A stretch of DNA of 64,000 nucleotides from an uncultured Gammaproteobacteria bacterium (GCA_964637955.1 CAZWXQ010000003.1:95154-159153); one strand, 5' to 3'. Positions 17,690 through 35,030 are shown, numbered from the stretch's first letter. The notes: generated from the sequence alone by a model not told the origin. Numbers and translations: made by a program.

Positions 17690-17723
17690 GCTGTCCAACG
17701 GGTCTCCGCAATGAATTTATTAC

Positions 17724-18593
17724 ATGAAAATATTTCTTATTGGTAAAAATGGACAACTCGGACATGAAATCGAGAAGCTCTCATTAAAAAATAATTATAA
17801 AATTTCCTCATTTGGTAAAGATGAATTAGATATCTTAAATTATAAGGATGTTAAAAAAAAGATATTAAGATTAAAGCCCGATGTTGTAATTAATACAGCT
17901 GCAATGCATGTTGTGCCCGACTGTGAGACAGATCCTATTAAAGCATTTCAAATAAATTCTTTTGCTCAAAAAAATATCGCTGAGATTTGTAATGAAAATA
18001 ATATTAAATCCGTTTATATCTCTACTGATAAGGTATTTGATGGTACAAAAAAAACTCCATACTCAGAAACTGATAGGCCAAATCCAATTCAAAATTATGG
18101 ATTATCAAAGCTTGCTGGGGAATTTTTAACTCTAAATAATAACAAAAATAGTTTAGTTATAAGAACATCGATTATATTTGGAGGGCTAGCTGGTAGCAGG
18201 CAGAAAAAAGGAAATTTCGTTTTGTACATTTTAAACAAAGCGAAAGAAGAAAAGCGATTGGAAATTTCCTCTGAGCAAATTACGAGCTTTGTATATGCTG
18301 ATGATTTAGCAAAATCTATTCTTGGGTTGGTTAAGAAGAAAAAAAATGGTATTTATAATGTTTCGAATCAGAAACATTCTTCATCAGCAATATTTGCAAA
18401 AGAAATTATAAAAATAAGAAGCTTAGATCTTAAAATAATCCCAGTTGATAGAGGAGGCTTTTATGGGCAAATGAGAACTCCAATCTTTACGGCTCTAAGT
18501 ACATCGAAATTAAAATCCGCAGGGATTACGCTTCCTGATTGGCAGACAAGTCTTAAGTGCTATTTAAAATATTTGGAGTCAAATGGGATATGA
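17724..18593 (+). CDS. RmlD-like NAD(P)H sugar-nucleotide 4-reductase (dTDP-4-dehydrorhamnose reductase family)
   Basis: 'MKIFLIGKNGQLG', 'YGLSKLAGE', ~289 aa. The same fold includes CDP-abequose/paratose synthases. Confidence 0.6.
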   Translation: MKIFLIGKNGQLGHEIEKLSLKNNYKISSFGKDELDILNYKDVKKKILRLKPDVVINTAAMHVVPDCETDPIKAFQINSFAQKNIAEICNENNIKSVYISTDKVFDGTKKTPYSETDRPNPIQNYGLSKLAGEFLTLNNNKNSLVIRTSIIFGGLAGSRQKKGNFVLYILNKAKEEKRLEISSEQITSFVYADDLAKSILGLVKKKKNGIYNVSNQKHSSSAIFAKEIIKIRSLDLKIIPVDRGGFYGQMRTPIFTALSTSKLKSAGITLPDWQTSLKCYLKYLESNGI

Positions 18594-19612
18594 GTAAACC
18601 ACTCGTATCTATAGTGATTTTAAATTGGAATGGTAAAAAAAGGCTTGAAGCGTGCTTAAAATCTCTAAAAAAAATTAAGTACCCCTCGATAGAGATTGTG
18701 CTTGTTAATAATGGTTCAACAGACAAAAGTAAAGAATTTGTTGAAAAAAATTACCCACAAATTAAGCTTATTAACTTAATAGATAATATTGGTTATGCGG
18801 GTGGAAAAAATCTTGGAGTAAAGCACGCATCCGGAAAATATATTCTTGCGTTAGATAATGATACGGTTGTTACTCCTGATTTTGTAGATGTTTTAGTTAA
18901 AGATTTAGAAAAGGATAAATCAATCGGAATAGTTCAGCCACAGATAAGAAGTATGTCAAATGAAAAATTATTAGACTCAGTAGTTTCATTTTTTACATTC
19001 ACTGGATTTTTATATCACTTTGGATATATGAAATCACACGAGAATAAAATTTATCAAACAAAAATGTTTGGGTATTCCATAAAAGGAGCCTGTTTTATGA
19101 TTTCAAAAGCTGATTATTTGAAGCTCGGGGGGCTGGACGAGTTATTTCTTTCTTATGTAGAGGAGACAGATCTCTGTCATAGGATGTGGATGTATGGGAA
19201 AAAAGTTTTATACGATCCGGAAAGTGTAATTTACCATTTTGGTGGAGGAGATACTTTGACCATGACAACAAGTAATGACTCTCTTTTTAGAGCATTTCGA
19301 AATAGATATTACTCATACATAAAAAATTTTAGCACTCTATATTTAATTAAAATTTTACCAGTCCATTTTATTATGTGTGAAATGTTTGTTGTTTTCTCTC
19401 TTCTCAAAAGAAATTTTAAACAGGCATATTATGTTCAAAAAGGGACGCTTTGTTGGGTATTGAAGTTACCAGCTCTATTAAAGAAGCGAAAATTAATTCA
19501 GAAAAAAATTAGAAAAAAGACTGATTCACAAATTGTTCCAGTTTTTACTAAAAATCCTAGATTTTCATATTATTTTTACCTAGGGAGTGGATTAGTAAAC
19601 TTTAAAGATTAA
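18590..19612 (+). CDS. Glycosyltransferase family 2 (rhamnosyltransferase-like). Start assigned to the ATG in the ATGA overlap with the upstream stop.
   Basis: 'PLVSIVILNWNGKKRLEACLKSL...IEIVLVNNGSTD', 'LDNDTVV' DxD motif. The ORF-track start at 18557 lies inside the previous gene. Confidence 0.7.
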   Translation: MSKPLVSIVILNWNGKKRLEACLKSLKKIKYPSIEIVLVNNGSTDKSKEFVEKNYPQIKLINLIDNIGYAGGKNLGVKHASGKYILALDNDTVVTPDFVDVLVKDLEKDKSIGIVQPQIRSMSNEKLLDSVVSFFTFTGFLYHFGYMKSHENKIYQTKMFGYSIKGACFMISKADYLKLGGLDELFLSYVEETDLCHRMWMYGKKVLYDPESVIYHFGGGDTLTMTTSNDSLFRAFRNRYYSYIKNFSTLYLIKILPVHFIMCEMFVVFSLLKRNFKQAYYVQKGTLCWVLKLPALLKKRKLIQKKIRKKTDSQIVPVFTKNPRFSYYFYLGSGLVNFKD

Positions 19613-19614
19613 TA

Positions 19615-22600
19615 ATGGAATTTCTAAAAAATAAAAAAACAATTCTTTTTGAAATATTATTCCTTTTTCTCCTTAGCCTTGTTCCACTGCTTTGGTTTGA
19701 TTCTGGAAAAGTTGTTGTAGGGCTTGATTCTGGTTATGCAATAGATCATCTTCAGTATTTTCTTCAAAGATCGTTTACATGGTTTGCTCCGCATAATTTT
19801 GGTGTTGATATGTCAATAGAAATTGGTGCTGTTATTTTTAGTTTGATACCGGCACTAGTTACGTTAATTGGATTACCTGATTTTCAAGTTCAAAAGGTTG
19901 TATTTGTATTTTGGTTTTTCATTTTGTCCTTGTCAATGTACTGCTTAACAAGTTATGTTTTTCCAAAAAGAGATCAATGGGGTATTAGAATCCTAGGTGT
20001 TATTTTATATATTTTTAATTTACATATTTATTCATTTTGGCTTCAAGGAGAACAAGCAATTTTCGCATCATATGCACTTTTACCACTAATTTTATTGGTT
20101 CTATTTAGGTTTGTTGATGAAAAAACTACACTTCTAAAGTACGCAATTTATCTAAATATAGTATATTTTCTATTTTCTTCAGGTGGTATAAGAGGAGTAT
20201 CGTTAGTAGGATCAACCTTAGCTTGTTTTTCTTTTGTGTTTTTATATTTTTTTATAGTTAATTTAAAACACAGTAGATTGGCATTCGTTAAAAGATTCTC
20301 CTCTTTACTACTCGTAAGTTTAATAATTTTTATATTCGTGAATATGTATTTCCTTCTTCCATTTCTTGCTTCTTTTGCAATGCAATATGGGAATCAAGTG
20401 AATATTGCAGGTGGAGTTGGTGGGGCTGTTGAATGGGCTCGCTCAATTAGTATTCACACGAGTTTAATAAATATTTTTAGATTAACAGGGGATAATAATT
20501 GGTATGATAAAAATTTTCTATGGTCTTATTCATACTTAACTAACTGGGGTTTGATTTCAATTAGTTTTATATTTCCAATTCTTGCATACACGTCAGTTCT
20601 ACTAGTTAAAGTAAAAAAAGAAAAAGTACTTATTTACTTTTTTGCTCTTTTAAGTCTTCTGGCGATTTTTCTTTCAGCAGGAACACACTCACCGCTAGGA
20701 GGATTGTATGTTTTTCTGATGGAAAAAGTCCCTGGCTTTGCGACTTTTAGGTCTCCATATTATAAATTCATGCCACTCGTATATTTAAGTTATGCATTTT
20801 TAATAAGTGCATCCGTATATTATCTGATTGAAAAATATAACAAAAATAAAAAAAATTTAATATATTCATTAGTCATATTAGGAGTTTTATTTTATAATTA
20901 TCCATTTTTTACTAAATCCAATTTCGTTTTTGATTTTCCGTTTCGATCAATGATGAAAGTACCAGACTATGTAAAGGAACTGCCTAAAGATGAGAAGATA
21001 GATCCTAAATATAGAACTTTAGTTGTTCCGCCATCAAGTTACTTTGCAAATTTACAAGCTTTTAAATGGGGCTATTGGGCAGGATACCCAATTTACTCAT
21101 TAGTTTCAGACAAGCAATTTATTACTAATGATGCATTTGGATTCCAAAAAAATGAAGATGATGTAATAAATGCATTTTATTCAGCTCTTCGAAACGAGCA
21201 ATTTGATCAGTTTAAAATCTTATCAAATAAAACCGCTACAAAATACATTTTAGTAACTAGAGATTTTGCCTATGATTATGACAAGTCAATTACTGAAAAT
21301 CCAGAAATTTATAATCAAATATTAAATAAAAATGATAAAATTTTTAAGAAAGTTCTGACAAAAGGTGAATGGGACTTATACGAAATAAATGACACAAGTC
21401 CTGAGATAATTAGAGTAATTGACAGTTTAGCTTCAATTTCTGAAAAAACTGATTTAGCGAATGCTTCAAGTGCTATAACAACTGATTTTGTATCAGAAAA
21501 AGATATATCAAATGTAAGACTTCCAATTAATGGTAGATTTACTAGTATAAATTGCTTGAGCTGTGATGTATTAGATCAAGGGTTAAGTAGTGATATTTTT
21601 GTGCCTCGTATAATGCCAAAATCGTTTTTTTATCCATACAAGATAAAACGGGAGAAAAATAATTTAAGTAAAATTAACGATAAAGAAGAAAAGCTTAATT
21701 ATTTATTAGGCTTATCGTTGAAAAGAGTTAATGAAATCCAAACAATTGATGTCAAAAGTGATTCATACGATGAATGGATAAATTCAGTAAATTTATGGAA
21801 ATCAAATTGGAATGAAATAAACAAAATTTACTTAGAGAATTATAATAATGAACAAAATCTTGTAATTTTAAAAAGAATATCTGATTACGCCGATCTGGAA
21901 GCAAATATAATAAATAGTAAATTAGATTTAACAAATATAGAACCTGAGAATAAATTGGGTAATTCTATATTGGAAAGTTTAAGCCAAATTAATTCTATTA
22001 ATAAATCTACTCAACAAGTGTTAAATTTTGCCAAATGGAAAGGGAAATATGTTTACGATGTTTCTGAAGTAAATCAAAAGATATATATAAACAAGACTAC
22101 TCTGCAAAAAAAATCTGATGGTGAAGTTTTATATCCAATCTCGTACGAAATTAATGGTGAAACTATAGAATATTCTCCGGAAGATAAATTTATAAAAATC
22201 CCTGAAAAAAATGACGGTAAATTAATTCTAAATTTTAATCTCCCTAACTTGTTTGCTGATGTAAAAAATATAAATTATATAGTTAAAGGGGAATCTAGAA
22301 AATGTTTAAGTTCTAGGGTTCCAGAATATTCTGGATATAAAAAATATTTTATAACTGCAGATCTAATTAAGGATAAAGAGGGTGAAGTTTATATAATTCG
22401 TAAGTTTAGTACTCTAAAAAATCAAAGTATTTCAAATGTTAATGATAAATCGTTAACGAGCTCTACAGCTACGTATAAGTATCCAAGCCCAAAATCAAAT
22501 GGTATTAGTATAAAATTTTCAGGTAATCTCAAAGACGAGAGCGTAGATATTTTATTTTGCTCAAATCAAGATAATATTCCCGAGGAGGTTTTTGATAAAA

Positions 22601-22995
22601 TCGTCGTGAATGAAATCTCAAAACCATCTTTATATGAGTATGAAATAGGAAATGCTAATGCAAATAGTCTGCCCAAAATCACATACGAAAAGATTAATCC
22701 TACAAAATATTCTGTTAAGATAAATGACGCAAAGCAGCCGTTTGTATTAAATTTTTCTGAGAGGTTTTCAACGATTTGGGGACTTAAGGTGAATGGCGAA
22801 AAAAATAATACCCATATAATGTTAAATGGTTTTTCGAATGGTTGGTATATAGATAAAAAAGGCAGTTATGAGATTATAATTTATTTTAATAATCAAAAAT
22901 TATTTAAAGTTGGATTGATTATAAGTTTGATTACATTTTTAATAATCTCAGCTTATTTAATTTGGGATTTTTTAAAGAAAAATGATAGAAAATAA
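19615..22995 (+). CDS. Giant membrane protein (1126 aa): N-terminal multi-TM domain, ~650-aa extracytoplasmic region, C-terminal TM anchor. GT-C-like / YfhO-like candidate.
   Basis: ~14 hydrophobic helices in residues 1-450, long hydrophilic K/N-rich middle, C-terminal 'FKVGLIISLITFLIISAYLIWDFLKK'. Architecture and C-terminal anchor are shared with 30670..32751. Confidence 0.4.
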   Translation: MEFLKNKKTILFEILFLFLLSLVPLLWFDSGKVVVGLDSGYAIDHLQYFLQRSFTWFAPHNFGVDMSIEIGAVIFSLIPALVTLIGLPDFQVQKVVFVFWFFILSLSMYCLTSYVFPKRDQWGIRILGVILYIFNLHIYSFWLQGEQAIFASYALLPLILLVLFRFVDEKTTLLKYAIYLNIVYFLFSSGGIRGVSLVGSTLACFSFVFLYFFIVNLKHSRLAFVKRFSSLLLVSLIIFIFVNMYFLLPFLASFAMQYGNQVNIAGGVGGAVEWARSISIHTSLINIFRLTGDNNWYDKNFLWSYSYLTNWGLISISFIFPILAYTSVLLVKVKKEKVLIYFFALLSLLAIFLSAGTHSPLGGLYVFLMEKVPGFATFRSPYYKFMPLVYLSYAFLISASVYYLIEKYNKNKKNLIYSLVILGVLFYNYPFFTKSNFVFDFPFRSMMKVPDYVKELPKDEKIDPKYRTLVVPPSSYFANLQAFKWGYWAGYPIYSLVSDKQFITNDAFGFQKNEDDVINAFYSALRNEQFDQFKILSNKTATKYILVTRDFAYDYDKSITENPEIYNQILNKNDKIFKKVLTKGEWDLYEINDTSPEIIRVIDSLASISEKTDLANASSAITTDFVSEKDISNVRLPINGRFTSINCLSCDVLDQGLSSDIFVPRIMPKSFFYPYKIKREKNNLSKINDKEEKLNYLLGLSLKRVNEIQTIDVKSDSYDEWINSVNLWKSNWNEINKIYLENYNNEQNLVILKRISDYADLEANIINSKLDLTNIEPENKLGNSILESLSQINSINKSTQQVLNFAKWKGKYVYDVSEVNQKIYINKTTLQKKSDGEVLYPISYEINGETIEYSPEDKFIKIPEKNDGKLILNFNLPNLFADVKNINYIVKGESRKCLSSRVPEYSGYKKYFITADLIKDKEGEVYIIRKFSTLKNQSISNVNDKSLTSSTATYKYPSPKSNGISIKFSGNLKDESVDILFCSNQDNIPEEVFDKIVVNEISKPSLYEYEIGNANANSLPKITYEKINPTKYSVKINDAKQPFVLNFSERFSTIWGLKVNGEKNNTHIMLNGFSNGWYIDKKGSYEIIIYFNNQKLFKVGLIISLITFLIISAYLIWDFLKKNDRK

Positions 22996-23308
22996 AATTT
23001 ATTTCGAGAAAAGAAGATTTTACTTAGGCTTACTTATTATATTTTTGAGTTTTGTTGTCCTGCCTCAAATTCCTTATTTAAATTTGATATTAACTTATTT
23101 AATGACAGGATTTATTTGTTTTGGAATAATATTAATTGTTGGATTTCGAGGATTGGATCTAGTAAGAGCTGGGATTTTATTGTTTGTGTGTATGCTATTT
23201 CTTGAATTATTTGGAAGTTCATATTTAGTTGAGGTTCTTGGAAATGTTGCTTATTTTATAATCCTGATAGGGTTACTTAGTCTAATTAGGTCACTTATTA
23301 AAAAATGA
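22982..23308 (+). CDS. Small membrane protein (108 aa, 3-4 TM), unknown function
   Basis: Hydrophobic segments only; translationally coupled to flanking genes. Confidence 0.3.
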   Translation: MIENKIYFEKRRFYLGLLIIFLSFVVLPQIPYLNLILTYLMTGFICFGIILIVGFRGLDLVRAGILLFVCMLFLELFGSSYLVEVLGNVAYFIILIGLLSLIRSLIKK

Positions 23309-23922
23309 ATATTACTAAAAGTTTTAAAAATAAAGGATTTAGGCTATCATCCTATTTGATATTCAAAGTTTTTTTAAATCGAATTCGTTCGAATTTAAGA
23401 ATATTGTTTTTTAATTTTTTAGGATTTAAAATTGATTCTTCCGTAACACTCGAAAAAAATATTGAACTATTCCAGGGTAAAAAAAACGCAATAAAAATTG
23501 GAGAGAAATCATTCATTGGGTATGGTGTAAGAATTAAAGCTGGATTTGATGGCGAGATAGAAATTGGCAAAAATGTTTACGTTCATGATTACACTTTTAT
23601 TTTTGCACATAGCAAGTTAATCATTGGTGACAATACGCTTATTTCGCCAAATGTTTTTATTACTGATTTTGATCATAAGTATCCTCACTCTAAATATAAA
23701 AATTTATTATCTAGTAAGGATGGTTATGTAGATAAAACTGTTTTTATCGGTAAAAATGTTTGGATCGGAGCTAATTCAGTGATTTTGCCAGGTGTTTCTA
23801 TCGGAGATGATTCTGTAGTCGGAGCTGGTTCAATTGTAACTAAAAATGTTCCTTCTGGTTCTATTGCTGTAGGAAATCCAGCAAGGGTTGTGAAAAAGAT
23901 TTATGAAACAAAAAAAAGATAA
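23305..23922 (+). CDS. Hexapeptide-repeat acetyltransferase (maltose/galactoside O-acetyltransferase-like)
   Basis: 'GKNVWIGANSVILPGVSIGDDSVVGAGSIVTKNVPSGSIAVGNPARVV'. Confidence 0.75.
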   Translation: MNITKSFKNKGFRLSSYLIFKVFLNRIRSNLRILFFNFLGFKIDSSVTLEKNIELFQGKKNAIKIGEKSFIGYGVRIKAGFDGEIEIGKNVYVHDYTFIFAHSKLIIGDNTLISPNVFITDFDHKYPHSKYKNLLSSKDGYVDKTVFIGKNVWIGANSVILPGVSIGDDSVVGAGSIVTKNVPSGSIAVGNPARVVKKIYETKKR

Positions 23923-24970
23923 ATACCCTCTAGTAAATATTATAATTTTAACTTTTAACCAGTTTAATTTTGTTGGGGAATGCATAGAAGCAGTAATCAA
24001 GAGTAATTATCCAAATTTAAAATTTTATTTGGTTGATAATAATTCGAATCATTCTGACTATAAAGAATTTTATGAGAAATTTAAAAATACGAATAATATT
24101 GAATTTTTTAGACTTAAAGAAAATATTGGTTTTGCTGGCGGATGTAACTATGCGTTAAAAAAAATTAAATCTGGATATATAGTTTTTTTAAATGATGATG
24201 TTATCGTAGATAAAGATTGGTTAATGCCAATAATTTCATACATGGAAGAAAATCCTGAAGTGGGTGCATGTCAGCCGAAGATAAAAAATATGAGAAAAAA
24301 GAATGAATTTGAGTACGCCGGTGCAGCAGGAGGATTTATGGATGTATATGGATATCCATTTGCGAGAGGTAGATTATTTTTTAACTATGAAAAAGATAAA
24401 GGTCAATATGATTCGATTACTGATTTAGTTTGGTGCTCTGGAGCATGTTTAATTACAAATGTAAATGTTATTAAAAATGTAGGTCTATTTGATGAAATAT
24501 TTTTTATATATGGAGATGAATCTGATTTATGTTGGCGTATGCATTTAAAAGGATACAAGTTAAAATACATTCCCGCTTCTGTCGTTTATCATCATGGATC
24601 GGGGACTATGAGTAAATTTAAATTTAAAAAAACATTTTTGCATCACAGAAATGGTCTTATTTTGCTTTTGAAAAATTATAGATTACATGAGTTGATTCGC
24701 TATCTACCTATTAGAATAGTTTTTGATTACATAGCTTTTTGGTATTATCTTTTAGTTAATCGTGAAATTAAAAATGCGATTGCAGTTCCGTTAGCGCATT
24801 TAAGTGTTCTATATAATTTTCCTTATTTATATTCATATAGAAAAAAAACGCTGAGAGATAATTTAAATTTTTCTGGTTACCCTTTGTATAAAAAAAGTAT
24901 AATAATAGAATATTTTTTACTTGGAAAGAAAAAATTTAGTCAATTAGATGATGGTAAATTTGTAAGATGA
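23903..24970 (+). CDS. Glycosyltransferase family 2
   Basis: 'LVNIIILTFNQFNFVGECIEAVIKSNYPNLKFYLVDNNS', 'LNDDVIV' DxD motif. Confidence 0.7.
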   Translation: MKQKKDKYPLVNIIILTFNQFNFVGECIEAVIKSNYPNLKFYLVDNNSNHSDYKEFYEKFKNTNNIEFFRLKENIGFAGGCNYALKKIKSGYIVFLNDDVIVDKDWLMPIISYMEENPEVGACQPKIKNMRKKNEFEYAGAAGGFMDVYGYPFARGRLFFNYEKDKGQYDSITDLVWCSGACLITNVNVIKNVGLFDEIFFIYGDESDLCWRMHLKGYKLKYIPASVVYHHGSGTMSKFKFKKTFLHHRNGLILLLKNYRLHELIRYLPIRIVFDYIAFWYYLLVNREIKNAIAVPLAHLSVLYNFPYLYSYRKKTLRDNLNFSGYPLYKKSIIIEYFLLGKKKFSQLDDGKFVR

Positions 24971-26004
24971 AAAAAAATACTAAACCAATATTAATAACAG
25001 GTGGTTGTGGATTTGTTGGTCGGAACCTGATCCGAAAATTAAAAAGCGAAAAAGATATTTGGGTGATTGATGATTTATCAATCGGTCAAGATCCTAAGAG
25101 ATGGTTGGGATCTTATAAATTAAAAAATAAGAAGAAAAACATGACTATTTATGAAGATAAAAATCAGTCAATAACTTTTATTAAAGCAGATTTGATAGAT
25201 GTTTTAAGAGCTGAAGAAAAAGATAAAAGATTGCCTAATTTTAATAAGATATATCATTTCGCATCAATAGTGGGGGGTAGAGCATTAATCGATGGAGATC
25301 CAATTCGGATTGGTAAAGATCTAGCTATTGATTCAATTTTCTTTTTTTGGCTAACCCAATTTAATAGAGAGGTCGATGGAGTCCTTTATGCCAGTTCCAG
25401 CGCTGCCTATCCAGTTTCTATTCAGAATAAGAAGAATGCAAAAGCATTAAAAGAAAAAGATTTAGATTTTTCATTAAATTTAGGAGTTCCCGATATGACA
25501 TATGGATGGAGTAAGTTAACTGGTGAATATCTAAGTAGATTAGCAGCCCAAAGGTATTCAATTCCAGTCTCTTGTGTGAGGCCATTTTCAGGGTATGGAG
25601 AAGATCAGGATTTCACTTATCCAATACCTGCAATTGCGAAAAGAGCAGTTCTTAAGGAGAATCCTTTTGATGTTTGGGGCAATGGAAAGCAAGGTAGAGA
25701 TTTTGTGCATATTGATGATTGTATCGCTGCATTTTTTATTATTATGAAAAATATTAAAGACGGTAAAGCATGTAATATTGGTAGCGGAAAGCTTACAACG
25801 TTTATCGATGTCATTAAAATTTTTACTTCTTTTTCTGATTATAGTCCAAAGATAAATAAACTTATAGATAAGCCAACTGGTGTTTCAGCCAGATATGCCG
25901 ATACTAAATTAATAAACAGTTTTGGGTGGAAGCCTAAAATTTCAAATACAGAGGGTTTTAAGCGCGTTTTTGATTATGTAAATGAAAGTATAATGGATAA
26001 ATAA
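24967..26004 (+). CDS. NAD-dependent sugar-nucleotide epimerase/dehydratase (extended SDR)
   Basis: 'ILITGGCGFVGRNL', 'YGWSKLTGE'. Confidence 0.65.
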   Translation: MKKNTKPILITGGCGFVGRNLIRKLKSEKDIWVIDDLSIGQDPKRWLGSYKLKNKKKNMTIYEDKNQSITFIKADLIDVLRAEEKDKRLPNFNKIYHFASIVGGRALIDGDPIRIGKDLAIDSIFFFWLTQFNREVDGVLYASSSAAYPVSIQNKKNAKALKEKDLDFSLNLGVPDMTYGWSKLTGEYLSRLAAQRYSIPVSCVRPFSGYGEDQDFTYPIPAIAKRAVLKENPFDVWGNGKQGRDFVHIDDCIAAFFIIMKNIKDGKACNIGSGKLTTFIDVIKIFTSFSDYSPKINKLIDKPTGVSARYADTKLINSFGWKPKISNTEGFKRVFDYVNESIMDK

Positions 26005-26005
26005 T

Positions 26006-27211
26006 ATGAAAACTGTTTTTGTAGCCAATTTTTTACCAGATACAAATTATACGAGAGATCTTAGTCAGGGTTTTATACAGATCATGAAAAAGAATGATGA
26101 ATTGTATCTTTGTGGAAGAAAAAATGAACCTGTTTTAGATGGAAAAATGCCTGAGGTAGATTTAGTTTGGAAAAAAGGGGTTTTCCCATATATTTCTATT
26201 ATCAAATATATATATTCTAAAAAGGCTCAAGTAGTACATGTTCAGCATGAATTCAAGACGTATGGAGGAATACTTTCGGCAATTCTTTTCCCATGGTTTA
26301 TACTAGCATTAAGATTATTGCGTCTTAAGGTAGTTATTACGTCTCATGGAATAGTTTCTAGAAAGCAGTTATCGAAAGATTTTCTAGAAGGTTTTGGTCT
26401 TAGCTATAATTTGTTAAATCTATTTTTAGTAAAAAGTTTTTTAACGTACAGCTATAAATTAATAATTTATTTTGCAAATTGCACTACGGTTCATTCGCCA
26501 TTTCTTAGAGAGATATTAACAAATGAGTATAAATGTAGTCCTAAGAAAGTAGTTTTTGTTGAACATGGAATTAGAGAAATTAAGGACATTTCACTTCTTC
26601 CTAAAAATCCTAAGATTTATAAAAAATATCCAAAACTTAAAAATAAGAATATTATTTTAGTCTTTGGATATTTTTCTCCGCGTAAAGGATTTGAATTTTT
26701 ACTCGAAGGATTTTCAGATTTAATAAAATCTGAAAAAGTTGATAATTGGATAATGGTTTTTGCTGGAGATGTGAATAAAGAATTTTTGCCATATAAATTA
26801 AAAATTGATAAATTAATAAAAAATAAAAAGCTTGATAAGTACACGCTGATTACTGGGTTTATAGATGCGGTTGAAGTTGACGAATTTTATAGACTGGCAA
26901 AAATTTCAGTAATTCCAGCTGCATATTCATTTAATACAAGTGGGGCTCTTGCTATGACTCTTGCATATAGAAAGCCTTTAATGGTTTCAAATGTTAAACC
27001 AATTTCTGAAGAAATAAGATTAAATAAATTCGGATTACTATACGATTTAGGTGGAAAAAATTCATTTGAAAATCAATTCAAGAAAATGATATCTGATAAG
27101 AAAACTTATTCTTTGATTAAGTCAACCCTAGATAAAGAAACTCCTAGAAGATTTTGGAAAAATATAGCACTTGAACACTATAAACTGTATTCTAAAATTT
27201 TAAAATCATGA
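26006..27211 (+). CDS. GT-B-fold glycosyltransferase (GT4-like, divergent)
   Basis: Two-domain size. C-terminal 'KISVIPAAYSFNTSGALAMTLAYRKPLMVS' resembles the GT4 C-terminal motif but lacks the E-x7-E. Confidence 0.45.
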   Translation: MKTVFVANFLPDTNYTRDLSQGFIQIMKKNDELYLCGRKNEPVLDGKMPEVDLVWKKGVFPYISIIKYIYSKKAQVVHVQHEFKTYGGILSAILFPWFILALRLLRLKVVITSHGIVSRKQLSKDFLEGFGLSYNLLNLFLVKSFLTYSYKLIIYFANCTTVHSPFLREILTNEYKCSPKKVVFVEHGIREIKDISLLPKNPKIYKKYPKLKNKNIILVFGYFSPRKGFEFLLEGFSDLIKSEKVDNWIMVFAGDVNKEFLPYKLKIDKLIKNKKLDKYTLITGFIDAVEVDEFYRLAKISVIPAAYSFNTSGALAMTLAYRKPLMVSNVKPISEEIRLNKFGLLYDLGGKNSFENQFKKMISDKKTYSLIKSTLDKETPRRFWKNIALEHYKLYSKILKS

Positions 27212-29007
27212 AGATATTAGGTATTCACTTAAGAACTCATGATACTTCTGTTGTTTTCATAGAAGATGGAAAAGTAGTTTATGGCGCTTCAAATGAACGA
27301 TTTTCTCGAGTAAAAATGGATAGAAATGCTCCTATTGGTGCATTAAAAAACTTTTTAGAATATACAAAAATAAAACCAAAGGATATAGATATAGTAACCT
27401 ATGTTGAAGATCCATTTCCAAAGTCACTGCTTTTAAATTTTAAGGAAAATAGTTGGCCAATAACGTCAACTAGAGGAGAATATTTATTGTGGCTTAAAAA
27501 GCCTTCGCTAATTATTGCAGAAATGTTAATTGCACCTGGAATTTTGAGCTATTTATATAGATATATCTATGCAAGGCTAAAGGTAAGAGGGTTACTGAAG
27601 GGGTTTAAAGGAAAAACTTATCTTGATCATCATCATATGGCTCATCTGCACTCAGCTTATTACACCTCTGGTTGGAAGGATTGTTTGGTAATGGCGAACG
27701 AAGGATCAGGTTTTCCTCAAACTCTTTCTATATATCATGTAAATAATGGAGTTTGGGAAAAGATTATTGAGAATAAGCTACCAAACTCGATGGGCAAATT
27801 TTATGAATTAGTTACTGAAATTCTTGGATTTAATAGGCATAGGCATCCAGGTAAGATAACTGGATTATCAGCATATGGAAACTCGAAAATCGCATATGGA
27901 TTCGTCAAGAAATTAATGTGGGTTAAGAATGACAAATTAATTTTGAACCACAGAATGTATCTTAAAATTTTAGCCTATTATCTTAATAATAAAAAAATCC
28001 CACCCGAGCTTAAGAATTATAAAAGAGAGGATATTTCCGCTGCTTTTCAAAAGCGCCTCGAAGATTGTATTTGCGAATTGGTCTCTTATGCAGCTAAAAA
28101 GACAGGTGAAAATAAAATTGCATTAGCTGGAGGAGTAGCAGCAAACGTTAAGGCGAACCAAAAAATATATGAGTTACCAGAAATTAAAGAAATATTTATT
28201 CATCAAGCAATGGGTGATGATGGTTTGGCAACCGGTGCAGCAATGCATGCTGCTTATTTGAATGGGGAAAATATTAAAAAGCCATCAAATGTTTACTTAG
28301 GACCCGATTTTTCAAATGTACAAATTGAAAAAACATTAAAGAAATTTAGTTTAAGATATAAAAAAGTTACAAATATTGAAAAGAAAGTCGCCGAAATACT
28401 TTCTGATGGAAAAGTAGTTGCTCGTTTTGAAGGTAGAATGGAGTACGGACCCAGAGCTTTAGGAAATAGGTCAATTTTATTCCATACTAAGGATAAAAGC
28501 GTAAATGATTGGCTTAATAAAAAATTAAAAAGAACCGAGTTTATGCCATTTGCTCCAGTTACACTCGAAGAATATGCAAATAATTGTTATAAAAATCTTG
28601 ATGGGGCAATGCACGCTGCTAAGTTCATGACCCTGACATTTGAATGCACGCCTTACATGAAAAAAGTAAGTCCAGCATGTGTTCATGTGGATAATACTGC
28701 TCGACCTCAAATAATTACAAAAACAGATAATCCAAAATATTATAAATTGTTATCCGAATATTTTAAACTAACTGGGATACCAAGCCTTGTTAATACAAGT
28801 TTTAACATGCATGAAGAGCCAATTGTTTGCACTCCAGATGACGCAGTGAGAGCATTTTTATCATCGCAAATTGACTACTTATCAATTGGTGATTTTTTAA
28901 TTAGTATTGATCAGAATATTAAGGTTTCTGAAAATTTCATAATGAATTTAGAAATAAAAAATAAAAATAAATCCAATAGTAATTTTATTAATTTTTTAAA
29001 TCATTAA
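27208..29007 (+). CDS. NodU/CmcH-family carbamoyltransferase
   Basis: N-terminal 'MKILGIHLRTHDTSVVFIEDGKVVYGASNERFSRVK' and 'HHHMAHLHSAYYTSG' HxxAH motif. ~599 aa is typical of O-carbamoyltransferases. Confidence 0.75.
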   Translation: MKILGIHLRTHDTSVVFIEDGKVVYGASNERFSRVKMDRNAPIGALKNFLEYTKIKPKDIDIVTYVEDPFPKSLLLNFKENSWPITSTRGEYLLWLKKPSLIIAEMLIAPGILSYLYRYIYARLKVRGLLKGFKGKTYLDHHHMAHLHSAYYTSGWKDCLVMANEGSGFPQTLSIYHVNNGVWEKIIENKLPNSMGKFYELVTEILGFNRHRHPGKITGLSAYGNSKIAYGFVKKLMWVKNDKLILNHRMYLKILAYYLNNKKIPPELKNYKREDISAAFQKRLEDCICELVSYAAKKTGENKIALAGGVAANVKANQKIYELPEIKEIFIHQAMGDDGLATGAAMHAAYLNGENIKKPSNVYLGPDFSNVQIEKTLKKFSLRYKKVTNIEKKVAEILSDGKVVARFEGRMEYGPRALGNRSILFHTKDKSVNDWLNKKLKRTEFMPFAPVTLEEYANNCYKNLDGAMHAAKFMTLTFECTPYMKKVSPACVHVDNTARPQIITKTDNPKYYKLLSEYFKLTGIPSLVNTSFNMHEEPIVCTPDDAVRAFLSSQIDYLSIGDFLISIDQNIKVSENFIMNLEIKNKNKSNSNFINFLNH

Positions 29008-30680
29008 TGTTAAAAAAATACAGAATTTATTTGTTATATTTCTTATTATTTTTTGGGTTAATTTTATTATTCACAAACGGACTTTTTAATAATTTTTTTG
29101 AACAAGATGAGTGGGGTGCTTTTGGAGATATAATCTATTTTCATAATCTAAATCCTATCGACTTTTTTATAAGTAAAGGTATCCATTTTACTCCGTTTGG
29201 ATTTATTTATTGGTTTATTCTTTATAAAATTTTTGCATTCAATGCTCAAGTATATATTTTAATTGAACTTCTGGTTCATACTTTTGCAAGTTTATTAGTT
29301 GTAATTCTTGCAACAAGACTTACTGGAAATAAAAAAATTGGTTTGTTAACTGGAATATTGTTTGCAACTAACGGTAGGGCTAATCAAGCATTCACTCATC
29401 TTGCAATTTTTTCTACGACAATTTCTGCATTTATTTTAATAATCTCCTTTTTTATCTATCTTAGTTATATTAAGGAGAAGAAAATATCTTATAAAAATAT
29501 TATTATTCTTTTTTTAATTTTTATCTCAGCACTCTTTTTTAGAGAAGAATGTTTTATAATAATCCCATTATTTATTTATTATTTATTTTTCTTCGATAGG
29601 TCTAAAATAAGTTCAAAAAATATACCTCAATTTTCATTATTTGCAGGCGGAATTATTTTATTTATTGTCTTTAGATTCGTATCGCAAATCTTCAATACGA
29701 CTCCCATACCCGTGGGGAGTGGAGTTTATAAATTATCAATTATTTATAACTTAGTTACATTACCATTTAAATTTATTGTTTTAAATTTAGTTGACGGAAT
29801 CAGAATTTTAAACTTCTTTGTTATCAACAGTCAAAGAATATATAACGACCAGCAAATTAATTTTATTCAAAATTATCCAGTTTTCATCGATATGGCGGTA
29901 TTTTTTATATTTTCAATCATTGGTATTTTATTTTCATTTTGGTTGTATAAATTTAATAATAAAAAAATATTAATTATTTTAGGATTTTCTTTGCTTTGGA
30001 TTTTATCTAATGTTCTTATTTTGTCAATTGTCGGAAGAAATTTATATGTCGTTGAGAGAAGATATTTATACTTCTCAAGCTTTCCAGTGCTTATGGTACT
30101 TTCTATGGTTTTATATTATGTTTATACATCTACATCATCGAAATTATTAACTTCTTATATAAAAAAATTTATTGTAATTTGCACTATTGCGATATTATTA
30201 ATTACATCTTATTCTGAGATTCAGCAAGAGGTTGCTTATAAAGAAAAGAATGCCAATGTAAGAAAAAAAATAATAAGCAGTATGCTTGAAAATTATCCTA
30301 CAATTCCCAAAGATACGATTTTTTATATCAATTGTAAGAATAAATGCTATAGCAATGTGACTTTTGGTATTCCAAATGAATATGTTTTGCCATTTTCTTC
30401 AGGTCCTGGTTGGATAATACTTACTCAGTACGCCAAGGGAAATGAGAAGACGTGGGGAAAATTATTAACAAATAATTTCCTCTTGGGACTTGGAAGTGAA
30501 GGATATAATAAGGAAGGTGATTATGGTTTTGGGTATTTTGTAGATTACAATAATCTGAAGTCTACCTTGAAAGAAAAAAAAATACCTACAAGTACTGTGA
30601 TTGCATTAAAATATGATGAGAAGAACTTTAAATTCATTGATGTTTCAAAGCAGATTAGAAATAAATTAAATGAAAATTAA
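29007..30680 (+). CDS. Polytopic membrane protein, GT-C-like glycosyltransferase candidate
   Basis: 557 aa, >10 TM helices, 'FFEQDEWGAFGD' acidic motif in the first loop, C-terminal soluble domain. Confidence 0.4.
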   Translation: MLKKYRIYLLYFLLFFGLILLFTNGLFNNFFEQDEWGAFGDIIYFHNLNPIDFFISKGIHFTPFGFIYWFILYKIFAFNAQVYILIELLVHTFASLLVVILATRLTGNKKIGLLTGILFATNGRANQAFTHLAIFSTTISAFILIISFFIYLSYIKEKKISYKNIIILFLIFISALFFREECFIIIPLFIYYLFFFDRSKISSKNIPQFSLFAGGIILFIVFRFVSQIFNTTPIPVGSGVYKLSIIYNLVTLPFKFIVLNLVDGIRILNFFVINSQRIYNDQQINFIQNYPVFIDMAVFFIFSIIGILFSFWLYKFNNKKILIILGFSLLWILSNVLILSIVGRNLYVVERRYLYFSSFPVLMVLSMVLYYVYTSTSSKLLTSYIKKFIVICTIAILLITSYSEIQQEVAYKEKNANVRKKIISSMLENYPTIPKDTIFYINCKNKCYSNVTFGIPNEYVLPFSSGPGWIILTQYAKGNEKTWGKLLTNNFLLGLGSEGYNKEGDYGFGYFVDYNNLKSTLKEKKIPTSTVIALKYDEKNFKFIDVSKQIRNKLNEN

Positions 30681-32751
30681 AATATTAACTTTTTTCGGAA
30701 TTCTTTTATTAATATTTATTGTTTTCAGAAATTGGTTTAGTTTAAATCCACTTTCGGCTGGGGACTGGGGTTATAAATTTTCAGAAACTATTGGAAAATA
30801 TCCCATCTTTCCATATGCTTGGGATTCGACAGGATTCTCAACGGGGCTTGGAAAAATTGTTATTTTTTTAATCGGCTTAAATTCATATTTTCTATCAACC
30901 ACCTCTTTATTATTTAATAATTTAAATATTCCATGGGTTTTAATTGAAAGGCTGATTTGGTTTTGGCCATTTTTATTCATCAGTTTAATAGCGCCATATC
31001 TTTTATTCTCAAAAATATTTTCAAAAAAATTTGCTTTTATATCTTCGCTCGTTTTTCTTTTTAATTCATACATCCTAATGATAGTTGGTGGTGGTCAAAT
31101 GGGAATTGCAATGGCTTACTCTTTAGCGCCTTTAATATTACTCGCAGAAATTACTTTATTAAGAAATTTAGATACAAATAAAATTTCAAGGTTGACTGAT
31201 AGGGAGCAATTAAATAGATCAATTTTACTTGGATTCTTATTTTGTTTTCAATTAATTTTAGATATAAGAATTGCTTATATAACAATTGCTATGATTCTTA
31301 TTTATCTTGGTCTATGGATTTTTACTTTCTCTTTAAATAATGGATCAAAAATCGGTAAAATAAAATTTTTAATTAAAATTATTTTTTATTCATTATTTTT
31401 ACCAGGATTAATAAGCTTACTGCTTAATTTATTTTGGATACTTCCAGGAATAATTTCAGGTAGTAATCCGATTAATGATTTAGGATCTGCATATTCATCG
31501 ATTGAAGCTGTTAAATTTTTCAGTTTTGTAAAATTAGAAAATTCTCTCAGTCTAATGCATCCATATTGGTCGGATAATATTTTTGGAAAAACACGTTTTC
31601 TTGATCCAATATTTATAATTATTCCCATTCTCGCATTCAGTTCTCTTATCTACATTAAAAACTTATCAAAAGAAAAGAAATTTTTTATTATATTTTTCAA
31701 CCTCCTTGGATTAATTGGTATTTTCTTAGCGAAGGGTTCAAGTGATCCTTTGGGAGAGATATATTTGTGGTTATTTAACTATTTTCCTGGATTTTTTATG
31801 TTTAGAGATTCATCTAAATGGTACTTATTCATAGTAATTTCTTATAGCATTTTGATTCCATTTACTATTAGTAAAATTTATGAGAGTATCGAAAAATTTG
31901 ATAATGTTAAAAAATTTACAAAAAATAAAATATTAAATCTTCAGAACATATTTTTAATTTTAATAGGTATTTATTTCTTAACTCTTTTAAAGCCTGCGCT
32001 ATTAGGTCAACTTAACGGTACATTTAAGTCAGCTCAAGTTCCATTTGAATATATTCAACTCAAGAATTTACTAGAGAAGGATAAAAATTTTTCGAGAGTA
32101 TTATGGGTACCTCAAGCATCTCGTTATGGATATTATTCAGGTGATCATCCTGCTGTTTTGGCACAAGATTATTTAAAAATTTACGACTCAGAAAAAATTA
32201 TAAAAGAACTTAAGCAAAATAAATCAAAAGACGTATTTAGTCGTGCAGGGGTTAAATATATTATTGTTCCATATGATAATTTAGGAGAAATATTTTTAGA
32301 AGATAGAAAATATAGTGATAAAAATTATTCACATTATGTAAATAGCTTGAATTCGATAGGATGGATAAAAAGAGTTGGAAATTTTGGGAAAATTGTAATT
32401 TATGAAGCTCAAGATCCAAAAGATCATTTTTGGTGTGATTGTAATGCCCAGATAAATTTTAAATATATAAATTCTACGCTTTATACAGTTAATCTAAAAA
32501 ATGTAAATAAAGGAGATAAGTTAATTTTTAACGAAGCATACGACAAAAAATGGATTATGAAAAATTCCAATTTAAATATAAATTCAGAAAAATATGATAA
32601 GAAATACAATAGTTTTGTTCTTCCCGAAGGCTCATATTCTGCTCAGATATATTATTCAGCTCAAGACTGGCTTAGGATTGGGTTGATAATAAGCTTAATA
32701 ACATTTTTTAGTTTAATGATTATTATTTTTTACTTATATAAGAAGTATTAA
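30670..32751 (+). CDS. Large membrane protein (693 aa), paralog of the C-terminal architecture of 19615..22995. GT-C/YfhO-like candidate.
   Basis: N-terminal multi-TM region ('LSAGDWGYKF' near the start), extracytoplasmic domain, C-terminal anchor 'LRIGLIISLITFFSLMIIIFYLYKKY' nearly identical in pattern to 'FKVGLIISLITFLIISAYLIW'. Confidence 0.4.
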   Translation: MKIKILTFFGILLLIFIVFRNWFSLNPLSAGDWGYKFSETIGKYPIFPYAWDSTGFSTGLGKIVIFLIGLNSYFLSTTSLLFNNLNIPWVLIERLIWFWPFLFISLIAPYLLFSKIFSKKFAFISSLVFLFNSYILMIVGGGQMGIAMAYSLAPLILLAEITLLRNLDTNKISRLTDREQLNRSILLGFLFCFQLILDIRIAYITIAMILIYLGLWIFTFSLNNGSKIGKIKFLIKIIFYSLFLPGLISLLLNLFWILPGIISGSNPINDLGSAYSSIEAVKFFSFVKLENSLSLMHPYWSDNIFGKTRFLDPIFIIIPILAFSSLIYIKNLSKEKKFFIIFFNLLGLIGIFLAKGSSDPLGEIYLWLFNYFPGFFMFRDSSKWYLFIVISYSILIPFTISKIYESIEKFDNVKKFTKNKILNLQNIFLILIGIYFLTLLKPALLGQLNGTFKSAQVPFEYIQLKNLLEKDKNFSRVLWVPQASRYGYYSGDHPAVLAQDYLKIYDSEKIIKELKQNKSKDVFSRAGVKYIIVPYDNLGEIFLEDRKYSDKNYSHYVNSLNSIGWIKRVGNFGKIVIYEAQDPKDHFWCDCNAQINFKYINSTLYTVNLKNVNKGDKLIFNEAYDKKWIMKNSNLNINSEKYDKKYNSFVLPEGSYSAQIYYSAQDWLRIGLIISLITFFSLMIIIFYLYKKY

Positions 32752-32787
32752 TAATACATTTAATATGATATTATTTTTTACGAAATT

Positions 32788-33810
32788 ATGAAAATACTTG
32801 TAACTGGAGCAGGGGGCTTTATGGGGAGCCATTTGGTGGATGGGCTTGTTAAAGAGAATCAAAAAGTTTTTGCAGTAGATGATTTGTCTGGAGGATTTAA
32901 AGAAAATTTAAATTCAAAAAGTTATTTCACAAAGCTTGATTTAAGAGATGAAAAAAAAGTTTCTAAATATATACAAGAAATAAAGCCTGATGTTATTTAT
33001 CATCTTGCAGCAGATGCAACAGAAGGCAGAAGTCAGTTTACCCCTATAAATTGTACAGCAAGAAATTATATGGCTTATCTTAATCTTCTTGTGCCAGCTA
33101 TAAATAATGGATTAAAGAAAATAATTTTAACCTCCTCAATGAGCGTATATGGTTCACAGAAGCCTCCTTTTAATGAGGACATGGAGAGATTGCCAGATGA
33201 CATTTATGGAGTGTCTAAAGCGTCAATGGAGAAATCGACTGAAATTCTATCAAGTGTCCATGGATTTAAATATGTAATTATCAGACCTCATAATGTTTAT
33301 GGACCCAGACAAAATATGCAAGATCCCTACAGAAACGTCATAGCAATCTTTATTAACTGCTTGTTGGGAAATAAAAACTATTATATATATGGAGAAGGGA
33401 AACAAAAAAGAGCGTTTACATATATAGATGATTTTACGCCATATATTATTAAAGCTGGGAATTTAAAGAAGGCAGAAGGTGAAATTTTCAACATTGGTCC
33501 TATGCAAGAATATACTATTAAAGAGCTGTCAGATATAATCTTAAGAAATTTTTTTCCAGATGGAGATATTCCAAAAAAATTACTACCAAAATATTTGCCA
33601 ATTAGGCCAATGGAAGTTGTTGATGCCTGGAGCACTGTTAGTAAGGCGGAAAAAATGCTCGGTTATAAAACCTCTGTTAACCTTGAAGATGGAGTTTCTA
33701 AAATGATTCAGTGGGCTAAGCCAAAAGGATATTCGAAGTTCAAGTACTTGTCTGACTTAGAAATAAACAGTGATAAAACCCCAAATACTTGGAAGAAAAA
33801 ACTAATTTAG
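32788..33810 (+). CDS. NAD-dependent sugar-nucleotide epimerase/dehydratase (extended SDR)
   Basis: 'MKILVTGAGGFMGSHL', 'YGVSKASME'. Confidence 0.7.
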   Translation: MKILVTGAGGFMGSHLVDGLVKENQKVFAVDDLSGGFKENLNSKSYFTKLDLRDEKKVSKYIQEIKPDVIYHLAADATEGRSQFTPINCTARNYMAYLNLLVPAINNGLKKIILTSSMSVYGSQKPPFNEDMERLPDDIYGVSKASMEKSTEILSSVHGFKYVIIRPHNVYGPRQNMQDPYRNVIAIFINCLLGNKNYYIYGEGKQKRAFTYIDDFTPYIIKAGNLKKAEGEIFNIGPMQEYTIKELSDIILRNFFPDGDIPKKLLPKYLPIRPMEVVDAWSTVSKAEKMLGYKTSVNLEDGVSKMIQWAKPKGYSKFKYLSDLEINSDKTPNTWKKKLI

Positions 33811-33837
33811 TCATTTAAATGATATAATTAGATTCAT

Positions 33838-34767: not shown

Positions 34768-34994
34768 TGTATATAAAACCTCAAGATATTCTATTTATCT
34801 TAATATTGATTCCACTTCTATATAAGAGAAGTCCAAAATACTTTGTAATCGCAGGACTTACCTGTCTTTTAATTTCAATGCCTCTGTTTTATAAATGGAT
34901 TTTTTTCACTGCACAAAGGTTTACTCTTTATGCATTTATTTTTCTATTTATTGCAGTTCTTTTAAATCTACTTAAGATTAGGCATAATAAGTAA
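34764..34994 (+). CDS. Small membrane protein (76 aa, 2-3 TM), unknown. Positioned like a GtrA-type accessory protein.
   Basis: Hydrophobic helices; ATGA-type overlap with the upstream Und-P glycosyltransferase. Confidence 0.3.
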   Translation: MMYIKPQDILFILILIPLLYKRSPKYFVIAGLTCLLISMPLFYKWIFFTAQRFTLYAFIFLFIAVLLNLLKIRHNK

Positions 34995-35000
34995 ATGAGG

Positions 35001-35030
35001 CCCCGTTAGATTAATTTAATGGGGTTGTCT
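35001..35030 (+). terminator. Candidate intrinsic terminator: stem CCCCGUU/AAUGGGG (one G-U pair), 10-nt loop, followed by UUGUCUU
   Basis: Read directly from the sequence; the only GC-rich hairpin plus U-run seen inside the island. Confidence 0.3.

Follow-up and report, generated by a model that had tools for sequence, protein, structure and literature searches.

A putative extracytoplasmic glycosylation module of two AftD-like GT-C paralogues and a small membrane protein in Microgenomates

A 64,000-nucleotide stretch of DNA recorded under an uncultured Gammaproteobacteria bacterium (GCA_964637955.1, CAZWXQ010000003.1:95154-159153; hereafter the window) encodes two large membrane proteins, referred to here as A (1126 residues) and B (693 residues). 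Based on their predicted structures, A and B are members of one uncharacterised subfamily of GT-C glycosyltransferases (GT-C_A fold), the nearest characterised relative of which is AftD, an alpha-(1->3)-arabinofuranosyltransferase of Mycobacterium. Our preferred reading, to which we assign a probability of about three in four, is that A and B are two lipid-linked-sugar-dependent GT-Cs in a multi-component extracytoplasmic glycosylation system, where they probably act outside the cell by adding sugars to a surface glycan. Judging from gene order, A, a small membrane open reading frame (ORF) that follows it, and B form a gene module that is conserved across Microgenomates. An initial annotation, made from the sequence alone, had placed both proteins with the above lengths, and our ORF calls, both on the + strand, agree with it (Table 1). 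Public assemblies also contain gene calls, P0121 and P0001, that match the two translations at 100% identity and coverage.

Structural and family evidence for a GT-C assignment

AlphaFold2 models of A and B were built on alignments of the respective families (A2, the A family, 30 sequences; A1, the B family, 34 sequences), and domains were delimited by DSSP analysis of the models. The model of A has a predicted local distance difference test score of 85.0 and a predicted TM-score of 0.80, and that of B has scores of 88.5 and 0.89, respectively. When the model of A was compared to the PDB with Foldseek, the top match was the AftD entry 6W98 (E = 2.2e-16 over 1456 alignment columns). Three AftD entries were found with E values from 2e-16 to 1.5e-13, the next family was STT3 at 1.4e-5, and the top six matches are all GT-C proteins. 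The top match for B was likewise 6W98, AftD of M. abscessus (E = 4.4e-7, TM-score of 0.51 on the query). It was followed by STT3, AglB, PglB, AftA, and ArnT, and the top 15 matches are all GT-C proteins with a probability of 1.00.

The homologues of A and B provide a second link to AftD. PF11847 (GT-C_AftD) is the sole Pfam family that recurs among them and was matched (E ≤ 0.01) by 12 of the 30 A-family members and 2 of the 34 B-family members. The gathering score of PF11847 is 26 bits; P0134 (37.1 bits) and P0177 (50.1 bits) score above this value, and P0125, P0157, and P0068 (24.5 to 25.6 bits) fall just below it. The initial annotation had described the two proteins as reminiscent of YfhO/ArnT-like or arabinofuranosyltransferase-like enzymes. 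This glycosyltransferase reading is supported, with AftD as the best fit, since it is the top Foldseek match for both proteins and PF11847 is recurrent. The other families that had been put forward did not share in this support. YfhO (PF09586) was matched by neither window protein, by a single B-family member of 34 (E = 8e-5), and by none of the 30 A-family members. DUF6541 (PF20176) was also not matched by the window proteins and was matched weakly by two of 34 B-family and one of 30 A-family members; the very distant homologue P0183 scores 31.6 bits with this model. EmbC was never among the family matches, GtrII gave single weak matches only, and ArnT is a lower-ranked structural match. Membership of A and B in YfhO, DUF6541, ArnT, or Emb was rejected on the lack of any model match. 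The specific label "arabinofuranosyltransferase" was not transferred to A and B, given that the Pfam model failed for both, the acyl carrier protein-binding domain is absent, and the annotated ORFs of the window include no noticed gene for making the donor decaprenyl-phospho-arabinose.

STT3, AglB, PglB, ArnT, and AftA belong to the same fold class as A and B and occupy structural ranks 3 to 15 for B and 4 to 6 for A, where they are far weaker than AftD; none of them gave a family-model match. The OSTs (oligosaccharyltransferases) in this list raise the alternative that A and/or B are OST/ligase-type GT-Cs, which would not add single sugars but, like PglB, AglB, and STT3, would transfer a completed glycan linked to a lipid pyrophosphate en bloc to a protein, such as an S-layer protein or pilin, or to the wall. 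STT3, AglB, and PglB do come next after AftD in the structural comparison (E values between 1e-5 and 1e-4 for B and between 1e-5 and 2e-3 for A), and the initiating phosphoglycosyltransferase of the Bac_transf type encoded at 48241..48906 would start an undecaprenyl pyrophosphate-linked glycan. However, eleven orders of magnitude separate AftD from the lower-ranked OSTs in the case of A, the homologues match PF11847 and no STT3 model, and the synthase encoded beside B is of the ArnC type, which makes a monosaccharide-lipid. In addition, the WWD motif, a hallmark of OST catalytic subunits, is absent from the translations of both A and B. We consider the OST alternative to be quite improbable.

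Three features of a GT-C_A protein are found in both A and B. These are a polytopic N-terminal domain of about 11 to 13 helices with a long first loop, a conserved acidic residue in that loop, and the fold match. The acidic residue is an Asp (D38 in A and D32 in B) that is invariant in both families and mutually aligned between them, and it is a candidate catalytic residue. A near-invariant or invariant Trp located ∼18 residues after this Asp and the motif PGFxxFR(S/D)xxK(F/W), at residues 373 to 384 in each protein, are also common to both. The core of B additionally contains the motifs GGGQ, AKG..P.G, and PGFxMFRDxxKW.

AftD consists of a GT-C fold formed by transmembrane helices (TM) 1 to 11, an outer alpha/beta domain with beta-sandwich carbohydrate-binding modules (CBMs), and a re-entry helix, TM12, with both termini in the cytoplasm (bioRxiv 10.1101/2019.12.22.885152). 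A separate C-terminal domain, TM13-16, binds the acyl carrier protein, and residues K39, D41, E251, K361, and D474 are essential (bioRxiv 10.1101/2019.12.22.885152). A and B resemble AftD in the ∼11-helix core, the first-loop Asp, the alpha/beta outer domain, the beta-sandwiches, and the re-entry helix. They differ in that they end after one C-terminal helix, whereas AftD has TM12 and TM13-16, and in that they have one or two beta-sandwiches in place of three CBMs and a structural sandwich. Furthermore, the four-helix bundle of A is not described for AftD, and A and B occur in Patescibacteria, as two paralogues accompanied by a small, coupled membrane ORF. An ArnC-type synthase gene is present in the window, where genes of the decaprenyl-phospho-arabinose pathway were not noticed. 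AftD homologues, with their layout of N-terminal TM helices, a long outer region, and a C-terminal TM segment, have been reported solely in Actinobacteria (bioRxiv 10.1101/2019.12.22.885152). We found no paper in the literature that connects Patescibacteria with GT-C or AftD-like enzymes.

Homologues of the two proteins are numerous. At least 249 homologues of B were found, nearly all of which are unnamed, with identities of 35 to 49% among the 120 listed, and a word-limited search returned 66 homologues of A. An exhaustive search with the A2 profile returned 12,041, 8,149, and 2,799 representatives of 50%-identity clusters at E ≤ 1e-3, 1e-10, and 1e-30, respectively.

Paralogy and domain organization of A and B

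The initial annotation had proposed that A and B are paralogues, and had stated that this would be refuted if their similarity were confined to the generic hydrophobic C-terminal anchor. Pairwise comparison by BLASTP aligned residues 85 to 413 of A with residues 85 to 415 of B (28% identity, E = 1e-18) and residues 993 to 1115 of A with residues 572 to 689 of B (33% identity, E = 1e-8). Profile alignment of the two families with hhalign extended the first match to residues 14 to 558 of A and 18 to 536 of B (100% probability, E = 2.8e-43). The homology thus takes in all of the membrane core, the outer domain next to it, and the membrane-proximal beta-sandwich, covering ∼550 N-terminal residues and the last ∼130 residues. 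The refuting condition does not hold, and A and B are true paralogues. The length difference is accounted for by an insertion of roughly 430 residues in A (about residues 559 to 992). A further proposal, that the pair reflects repeated duplication of membrane glycosyltransferases within the island, was not borne out. At 28% identity, the pair represents an old duplication that has been retained as a pair across Microgenomates, and this conservation rules out a recent duplication within the island. Taken together, the comparisons point to an ancient, lineage-wide duplication rather than a local expansion.

Both models show the same plan, in which the core is followed by an outer alpha/beta domain, by two beta-sandwiches in A or one in B, and by a C-terminal helix that returns into the membrane. 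The multi-TM N-terminal block that had been described for both proteins is upheld by hydropathy, with ∼10 peaks before residue 360 in A and ∼13 before residue 446 in B, and by the secondary structure of the models. In these, each protein has ∼11 TM helices, arranged as a first helix, a ∼45-residue loop, and then ∼10 membrane helices. Both termini of A and B are predicted to be cytoplasmic, and the C-terminal helix of A would correspond, by its position in the chain, to TM12 of AftD.

Two of the A domains, the helical bundle (residues 673 to 805) and the first beta-sandwich (residues 811 to 985), lack a counterpart in B. The helical bundle gave a weak match to DUF5667 (PF18915), whose 22.1 bits fall short of the cut-off of 27, and six of the 30 A-family members match this family; in the same region, all PDB matches of the A2 profile are to helical bundles, either designed or natural. 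By analogy to AftD, the first beta-sandwich is a candidate CBM. As a separate observation, B-type proteins are longer (830 to 1045 residues) in several genomes of Blackburnbacteria or Daviesbacteria type (loci L015, L021, L040, L042, L053, L077, and L082), and the complement of outer domains in B is accordingly variable.

The initial annotation had also emphasized a near-identical C-terminal anchor in the two proteins and a lysine/asparagine-rich outer domain. A single C-terminal hydrophobic helix is present in both, with the sequences as originally quoted, and the two helices share an identical run of nine residues, GLIISLITF. The similarity of the anchors is, however, not a special feature of the pair. 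Across 50 genomes, the mean identity of A and B anchors is 0.19 within a genome and 0.20 between genomes, which rules out concerted evolution or gene conversion. The value for the window pair, 0.38, lies in the top 1.4% of cross-genome comparisons, and what is conserved in the anchors is the motif G-x-x-[IV]-[ST]-x-x-[ST]. The lysine/asparagine richness was rejected as a feature and is a base-composition bias. The combined fraction of the two residues is 0.21 in the outer domains versus 0.17 to 0.20 in cytoplasmic enzymes of the same window, and the genome has a guanine plus cytosine (GC) content of 28 to 30%.

A small membrane protein and the conserved gene module

The ORF that follows A encodes a protein of 108 residues, apparently with four TM segments. 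To survey its occurrence and that of the A/B pair, an A-profile scan was carried out with one genome per species, which returned 79 loci; the genome of the window itself is outside the species representatives that were scanned. ORFs were re-called in these loci and scored with hidden Markov models (HMMs) of the window genes. An ORF of 105 to 135 residues begins within 150 nt of the A stop codon in 67 of 76 loci, usually with an overlap of 4 to 60 nt, and a recurrent ∼350-nt gap between A and B in other genomes is occupied by this ORF. The family alignment (A3) contains an invariant P31 and near-invariant Y32 and N34, which form a P-Y-x-N motif. Based on this conservation and gene overlap, we take the small protein to be a required, translationally coupled partner of the A-type genes.

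The small-protein family has no Pfam family (43 members compared at E ≤ 0.05), no match of the A3 profile to the PDB, and no named homologue. Two candidate identities were set aside. The size and helix count would fit a GtrA flippase, but 0 of the 43 members match GtrA or any consistent Pfam family, and any analogy to GtrA may be one of function. A GacJ-type activator of a lipid-sugar synthase also lacks family support among the 43 members. A distant homologue of A, P0185 (1051 residues), is extended at its C terminus by five helices, and the final helix of the small-protein family can be aligned with the tail of P0185 (hmmsearch domain E = 3.8e-6; hhalign, 49%). P0185 may carry the small protein as a C-terminal fusion. 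The small protein may be a flippase or a subunit equivalent to the C-terminal four-helix domain (TM13-16) of AftD, for which the possible fusion in P0185 is the one hint, and it might stabilise A. When the small-protein HMM was iterated, it also found ORFs of 71 to 77 residues right after the B-type gene in ∼20 loci (e.g., L018, L019, L023, L024, and L026-L029), 2.3 to 4.4 kb downstream of the A stop codon. These could represent another conserved mini membrane ORF, or the profile may have drifted on hydrophobic sequence.

The initial annotation had suggested examining the distribution of homologues across candidate phyla radiation (CPR) genomes, and the module proved to be widespread, with almost all genomes that carry A-type and B-type genes belonging to Microgenomates. 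The loci include Levy-, Gottesman-, Roizman-, Davies-, Blackburn-, and Woesebacteria and records named "Microgenomates", along with one Parcubacteria and one Omnitrophota locus. About 40 of the 79 loci come from third-party annotation records of metagenome-assembled genomes that are labelled "uncultured Gammaproteobacteria" or "Pseudomonadales" and contain the same low-GC, Microgenomates-type cluster. These labels look wrong or are placeholders, the latter being probable for "uncultured Gammaproteobacteria".

A B-type gene is located within 10 kb downstream in 50 of the 73 full-length A-type loci and within 600 nt in 31 of them. In most other genomes only the small ORF separates A and B, and the commonest order is GT2, PMT_2-like GT-C, A, small ORF, B, ArnC-like GT2, acetyltransferase, and GT2. 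A and B are separated by about 7.7 kb of further glycan genes in the window and in its close relatives. The window, L003, and L007 share six inserted genes after the small ORF, which encode an acetyltransferase, a GT2, a short-chain dehydrogenase/reductase (SDR), a GT4, a NodU-like carbamoyltransferase, and, next to B, the PMT_2-like GT-C. The gene order upstream of A in the window recurs in L002, L003, and L005-L014, and the order that is conserved runs from 6-deoxyhexose genes, GT2, A, small TM protein, and acetyltransferase to the PMT_2-like GT-C and B.

The arrangement could also be read as a processive polymerase, in which A, the small membrane protein, and B together build the main chain of a wall polymer outside the cell from lipid-linked monosaccharides, as the Emb and Aft proteins build arabinan, instead of decorating a polymer of cytoplasmic origin. 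The closest relative, AftD, works in polymer building, 31 of 73 genomes have the three genes in direct succession with their reading frames overlapping or abutting, and A has extra putative glycan-binding modules, all of which would suit such a role. On the other hand, the cluster contains an initiating transferase and many cytoplasmic GT2 and GT4 enzymes, enough for a conventional backbone, and A and B are 7.7 kb apart in the window. In our judgement these points leave the polymerase improbable.

Table 1 Coordinates of A, B, and neighbouring features in the window
Feature	Position	Strand	Basis
ORF A, AftD-like GT-C glycosyltransferase, long paralogue (1126 aa)	19615..22995	+	ORF call, AlphaFold2 model, Foldseek
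A aa 1-432, polytopic GT-C membrane core, ∼11 helices	19615..20910	+	DSSP, A2 invariant columns, hhalign
A D38, invariant, first outer loop	codon 19726..19728	+	A2 alignment
A aa 438-660, mixed alpha/beta extracytoplasmic domain, common with B to about aa 558	20926..21594	+	hhalign, DSSP
A aa 673-805, four long helices (helical bundle), not in B	21631..22029	+	DSSP
A aa 811-985, first beta-sandwich, not in B	22045..22569	+	DSSP
A aa 993-1091, membrane-proximal beta-sandwich, common with B	22591..22887	+	BLASTP, DSSP
A aa 1092-1125, C-terminal re-entry TM helix, G-xx-I-S-xx-T face, basic cytoplasmic tail	22888..22989	+	DSSP, anchor comparison
Small membrane protein, 108 aa, apparently 4 TM	22982..23308	+	ORF; start overlaps A stop by 14 nt
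ORF B, AftD-like GT-C glycosyltransferase, short paralogue (693 aa)	30670..32751	+	ORF call, AlphaFold2 model, Foldseek
B aa 1-446, polytopic GT-C core	30670..32007	+	A1 invariants, DSSP, hhalign
B D32, invariant, first outer loop	codon 30763..30765	+	A1 alignment
B aa 447-662, alpha/beta domain (447-565) and beta-sandwich (566-662)	32008..32655	+	BLASTP, DSSP
B aa 664-691, C-terminal TM helix	32659..32742	+	DSSP, anchor comparison
Nucleotidyltransferase, SDR, RmlC-like cupin, RmlD, and GT2, upstream of A	15247..19612	+	NCBIfam
557-aa polytopic protein, PMT_2/ArnT-type GT-C	29007..30680	+	A4 invariants, family Pfam matches, hhalign
SDR epimerase/dehydratase, between B and ArnC-like gene	32788..33810	+	NCBIfam matches, all below curated cut-offs
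GT2 with C-terminal TM segments, ArnC/GtrB-type polyprenyl-phosphate sugar synthase, two genes after B	33838..34767	+	PDB sequence matches

Proposed function and the surrounding glycan genes

A and B are located in a region (15.2 to 34.8 kb) of tightly packed + strand genes with a GC content of 28 to 31%. The start of A lies 2 nt 3' of the end of the upstream GT2 gene, and the start of B overlaps the stop codon of the 557-residue polytopic ORF by 11 nt. Of the five genes preceding A, RmlD scores 228 bits and passes its NCBIfam equivalog cut-off of 224. The sugar-1-phosphate nucleotidyltransferase is closest to the CDP-glucose type (glucose-1-phosphate cytidylyltransferase-like, 238 bits, below the cut-off of 300), and the GT2 has a match to a rhamnosyltransferase subfamily, also below the cut-off. 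By their sequence matches, the nucleotidyltransferase, SDR, RmlC-like cupin, and RmlD genes constitute a 6-deoxyhexose pathway. Downstream of B, the SDR is a candidate modifier of a nucleotide-sugar substrate. The GT2 that follows it matches ArnC (9hwj, E = 8e-42), GtrB (5eke, E = 9e-36), and DPMS (5mlz, E = 1e-13) in the PDB, and its matches to the NCBIfam ArnC and PgfS models are below the cut-offs. This protein is a clear homologue of ArnC and GtrB, which make polyprenyl-phosphate sugars, and is thus a candidate source of the lipid-linked donor. ArnC-like genes were found in 31 A-type loci, 13 of which have one immediately after B.

In the glycosylation system that we favour, the membrane-anchored ArnC/GtrB-like GT2 would use a nucleotide sugar to charge polyprenyl phosphate with a sugar at the cytoplasmic face, and the lipid-linked sugar would be flipped to the outer face of the membrane. 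There, A and B would each transfer this sugar to a cell-surface glycan, either still growing or already complete, and would hold that glycan through their beta-sandwich modules. The backbone of this glycan would come from the cytoplasmic GT2 and GT4 enzymes and the 6-deoxyhexose pathway encoded nearby. That two paralogues have been kept adjacent for this long is most simply explained if they form two different linkages or act on different acceptor positions.

Comparable arrangements are known. In the glycosylation of Gram-positive wall polymers, a lipid-sugar synthase, a flippase, and a GT-C work together (PMC8035078), and in three-component O-antigen systems, a GT-C with a C-terminal CBM has been shown to be the transferase (PMC11127046). 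The CsbB/GtlA, GtcA, and YfhO/GtlB set, GacI/J/K/L, and the O-antigen Gtr/GT136 systems resemble the module described here in combining a GT2 synthase, a small protein of three to four TM segments, and a GT-C. In the known systems, the flippase is small or dedicated, some of the GT-Cs carry a CBM, and the genes lie in clusters for rhamnose-type polymers. A and B are nevertheless not members of the YfhO, GtrII, or GT136 systems, with one or two isolated weak matches, and the module differs from Gtr-type systems in that the small protein is not GtrA and in that two paralogous GT-Cs and a third, PMT_2-type GT-C travel together.

Several observations weigh against this reading. The Pfam scan returned nothing for B and only the subthreshold DUF5667 match for A, and the NCBIfam scan returned only MmpA, such that no glycosyltransferase model was reached by either protein; for PF11847, neither window protein matched at E ≤ 0.1. 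PDB sequence searches with A, B, the A1 and A2 profiles, and the homologues P0177 and P0185 found no AftD and no other GT-C, and the sequence profiles of both families match no solved structure. As a consequence, the link to AftD rests on the Pfam matches of the homologues and the fold comparison, where the structural alignments to AftD have only ∼10% identity and TM-scores of ∼0.5. The equivalence of D38 and D32 to the essential D41 of AftD would follow from loop position only. Of the window ORFs that were scanned, none could be identified as a GtrA, Wzx, or MATE flippase. In 15 A-type loci, the downstream sequence extends for 8 kb or more and holds no full-length (≥400 residues) B-type ORF, which shows that the pair is not obligatory; one of these is L005, where the B-type gene is split into ORFs of 390 and 276 residues by a frameshift, pseudogene formation, or an assembly error. 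Finally, the donor, the acceptor, and the activity are ones that we infer.

The absence of a direct glycosyltransferase match would also be expected if A and B were not enzymes, i.e., if they were membrane scaffolds or lipid/glycolipid delivery proteins with a GT-C-like fold. The MmpA model, which describes "trehalose lipid delivery", is matched by A at 19.8 bits and by B at 25.1 bits. These scores are about one-tenth of the curated cut-off of 210, however, and the first-loop Asp and dense loop motifs are invariant across hundreds of homologues, as is typical of an active site. Moreover, the genes sit in glycan-synthesis operons in every genome examined. We regard a non-enzymatic role as extremely improbable.

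A more elaborate version of the glycosylation reading is that A, the small four-helix protein, and B assemble into a Microgenomates-specific heteromeric machine akin to a "split AftD". The small protein would be either the detached counterpart of TM13-16 or a new lipid-sugar flippase, and it would couple donor delivery to two catalytic subunits that polymerise or pattern a lineage-specific 6-deoxyhexose wall glycan bearing acetyl or carbamoyl groups. We put this forward as a speculative proposal that is rather unlikely to hold as stated.

With the GT-C assignment, a fold and a probable reaction class can now be given to two large families that are left in public databases as domain-less "hypothetical protein" entries. 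The AftD-like enzymes, a mycobacterial drug-target family, would accordingly have a large and deeply diverged sister group in Microgenomates with its own conserved partners. The distinctive features of this group are the conserved paralogue pair, the coupled small membrane protein, and the helical-bundle insertion in A. We expect the chemistry to follow known GT-C systems, and as such, no concept is overturned. The three-gene module could serve as a marker for surface-glycan loci in CPR genomes and aid envelope annotation. CPR bacteria have tiny genomes and, to our knowledge, almost nothing has been established experimentally about their cell envelopes; roughly 48 kb of this organism is devoted to one glycan island with several GT-Cs.

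The third GT-C of the A/B neighbourhood is the 557-residue protein, whose gene type is present in 43 of 73 A-type loci. Neither it nor the 108-residue protein has a usable direct Pfam or NCBIfam match. Its family alignment (A4) shows an invariant D34-E35-W36 after helix 1, five of 33 family members match PF13231 (PMT_2), and hhalign aligned the family to the B family from the first loop to TM3 with 77% probability.

The island itself occupies the first ∼48 kb of the window (1..48906) on the + strand and encodes at least seven GT-C-like proteins. Those at 708, 9630, and 41363 have direct PMT_2 matches, and the others are at 19615, 29007, and 30670 and in the C-terminal half of the protein at 38139; no assignment could be given to a polytopic ORF at 2435. 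Further genes of the island encode many GT2 and GT4 enzymes, two ArnC/GtrB-like GT2s (8899 and 33838), an FkbM methyltransferase, acetyltransferases, the NodU-like carbamoyltransferase (27208..29007), and the initiating Bac_transf protein (48241..48906). An Rfam scan of the window found zero RNA families. The protein at 38139..41342 (+ strand, 1067 residues, ∼20 TM segments) looks like a fusion. Its N-terminal half has a weak match to an O-antigen ligase/polymerase family (Wzy_C, 22.8 bits, below the cut-off), and its C-terminal half (residues 575 to 1003) is 27% identical to the 557-residue GT-C (E = 8e-12). Outside of the island, a large polytopic DUF2079 membrane protein (131 bits) is encoded at 56739..58202 on the + strand.

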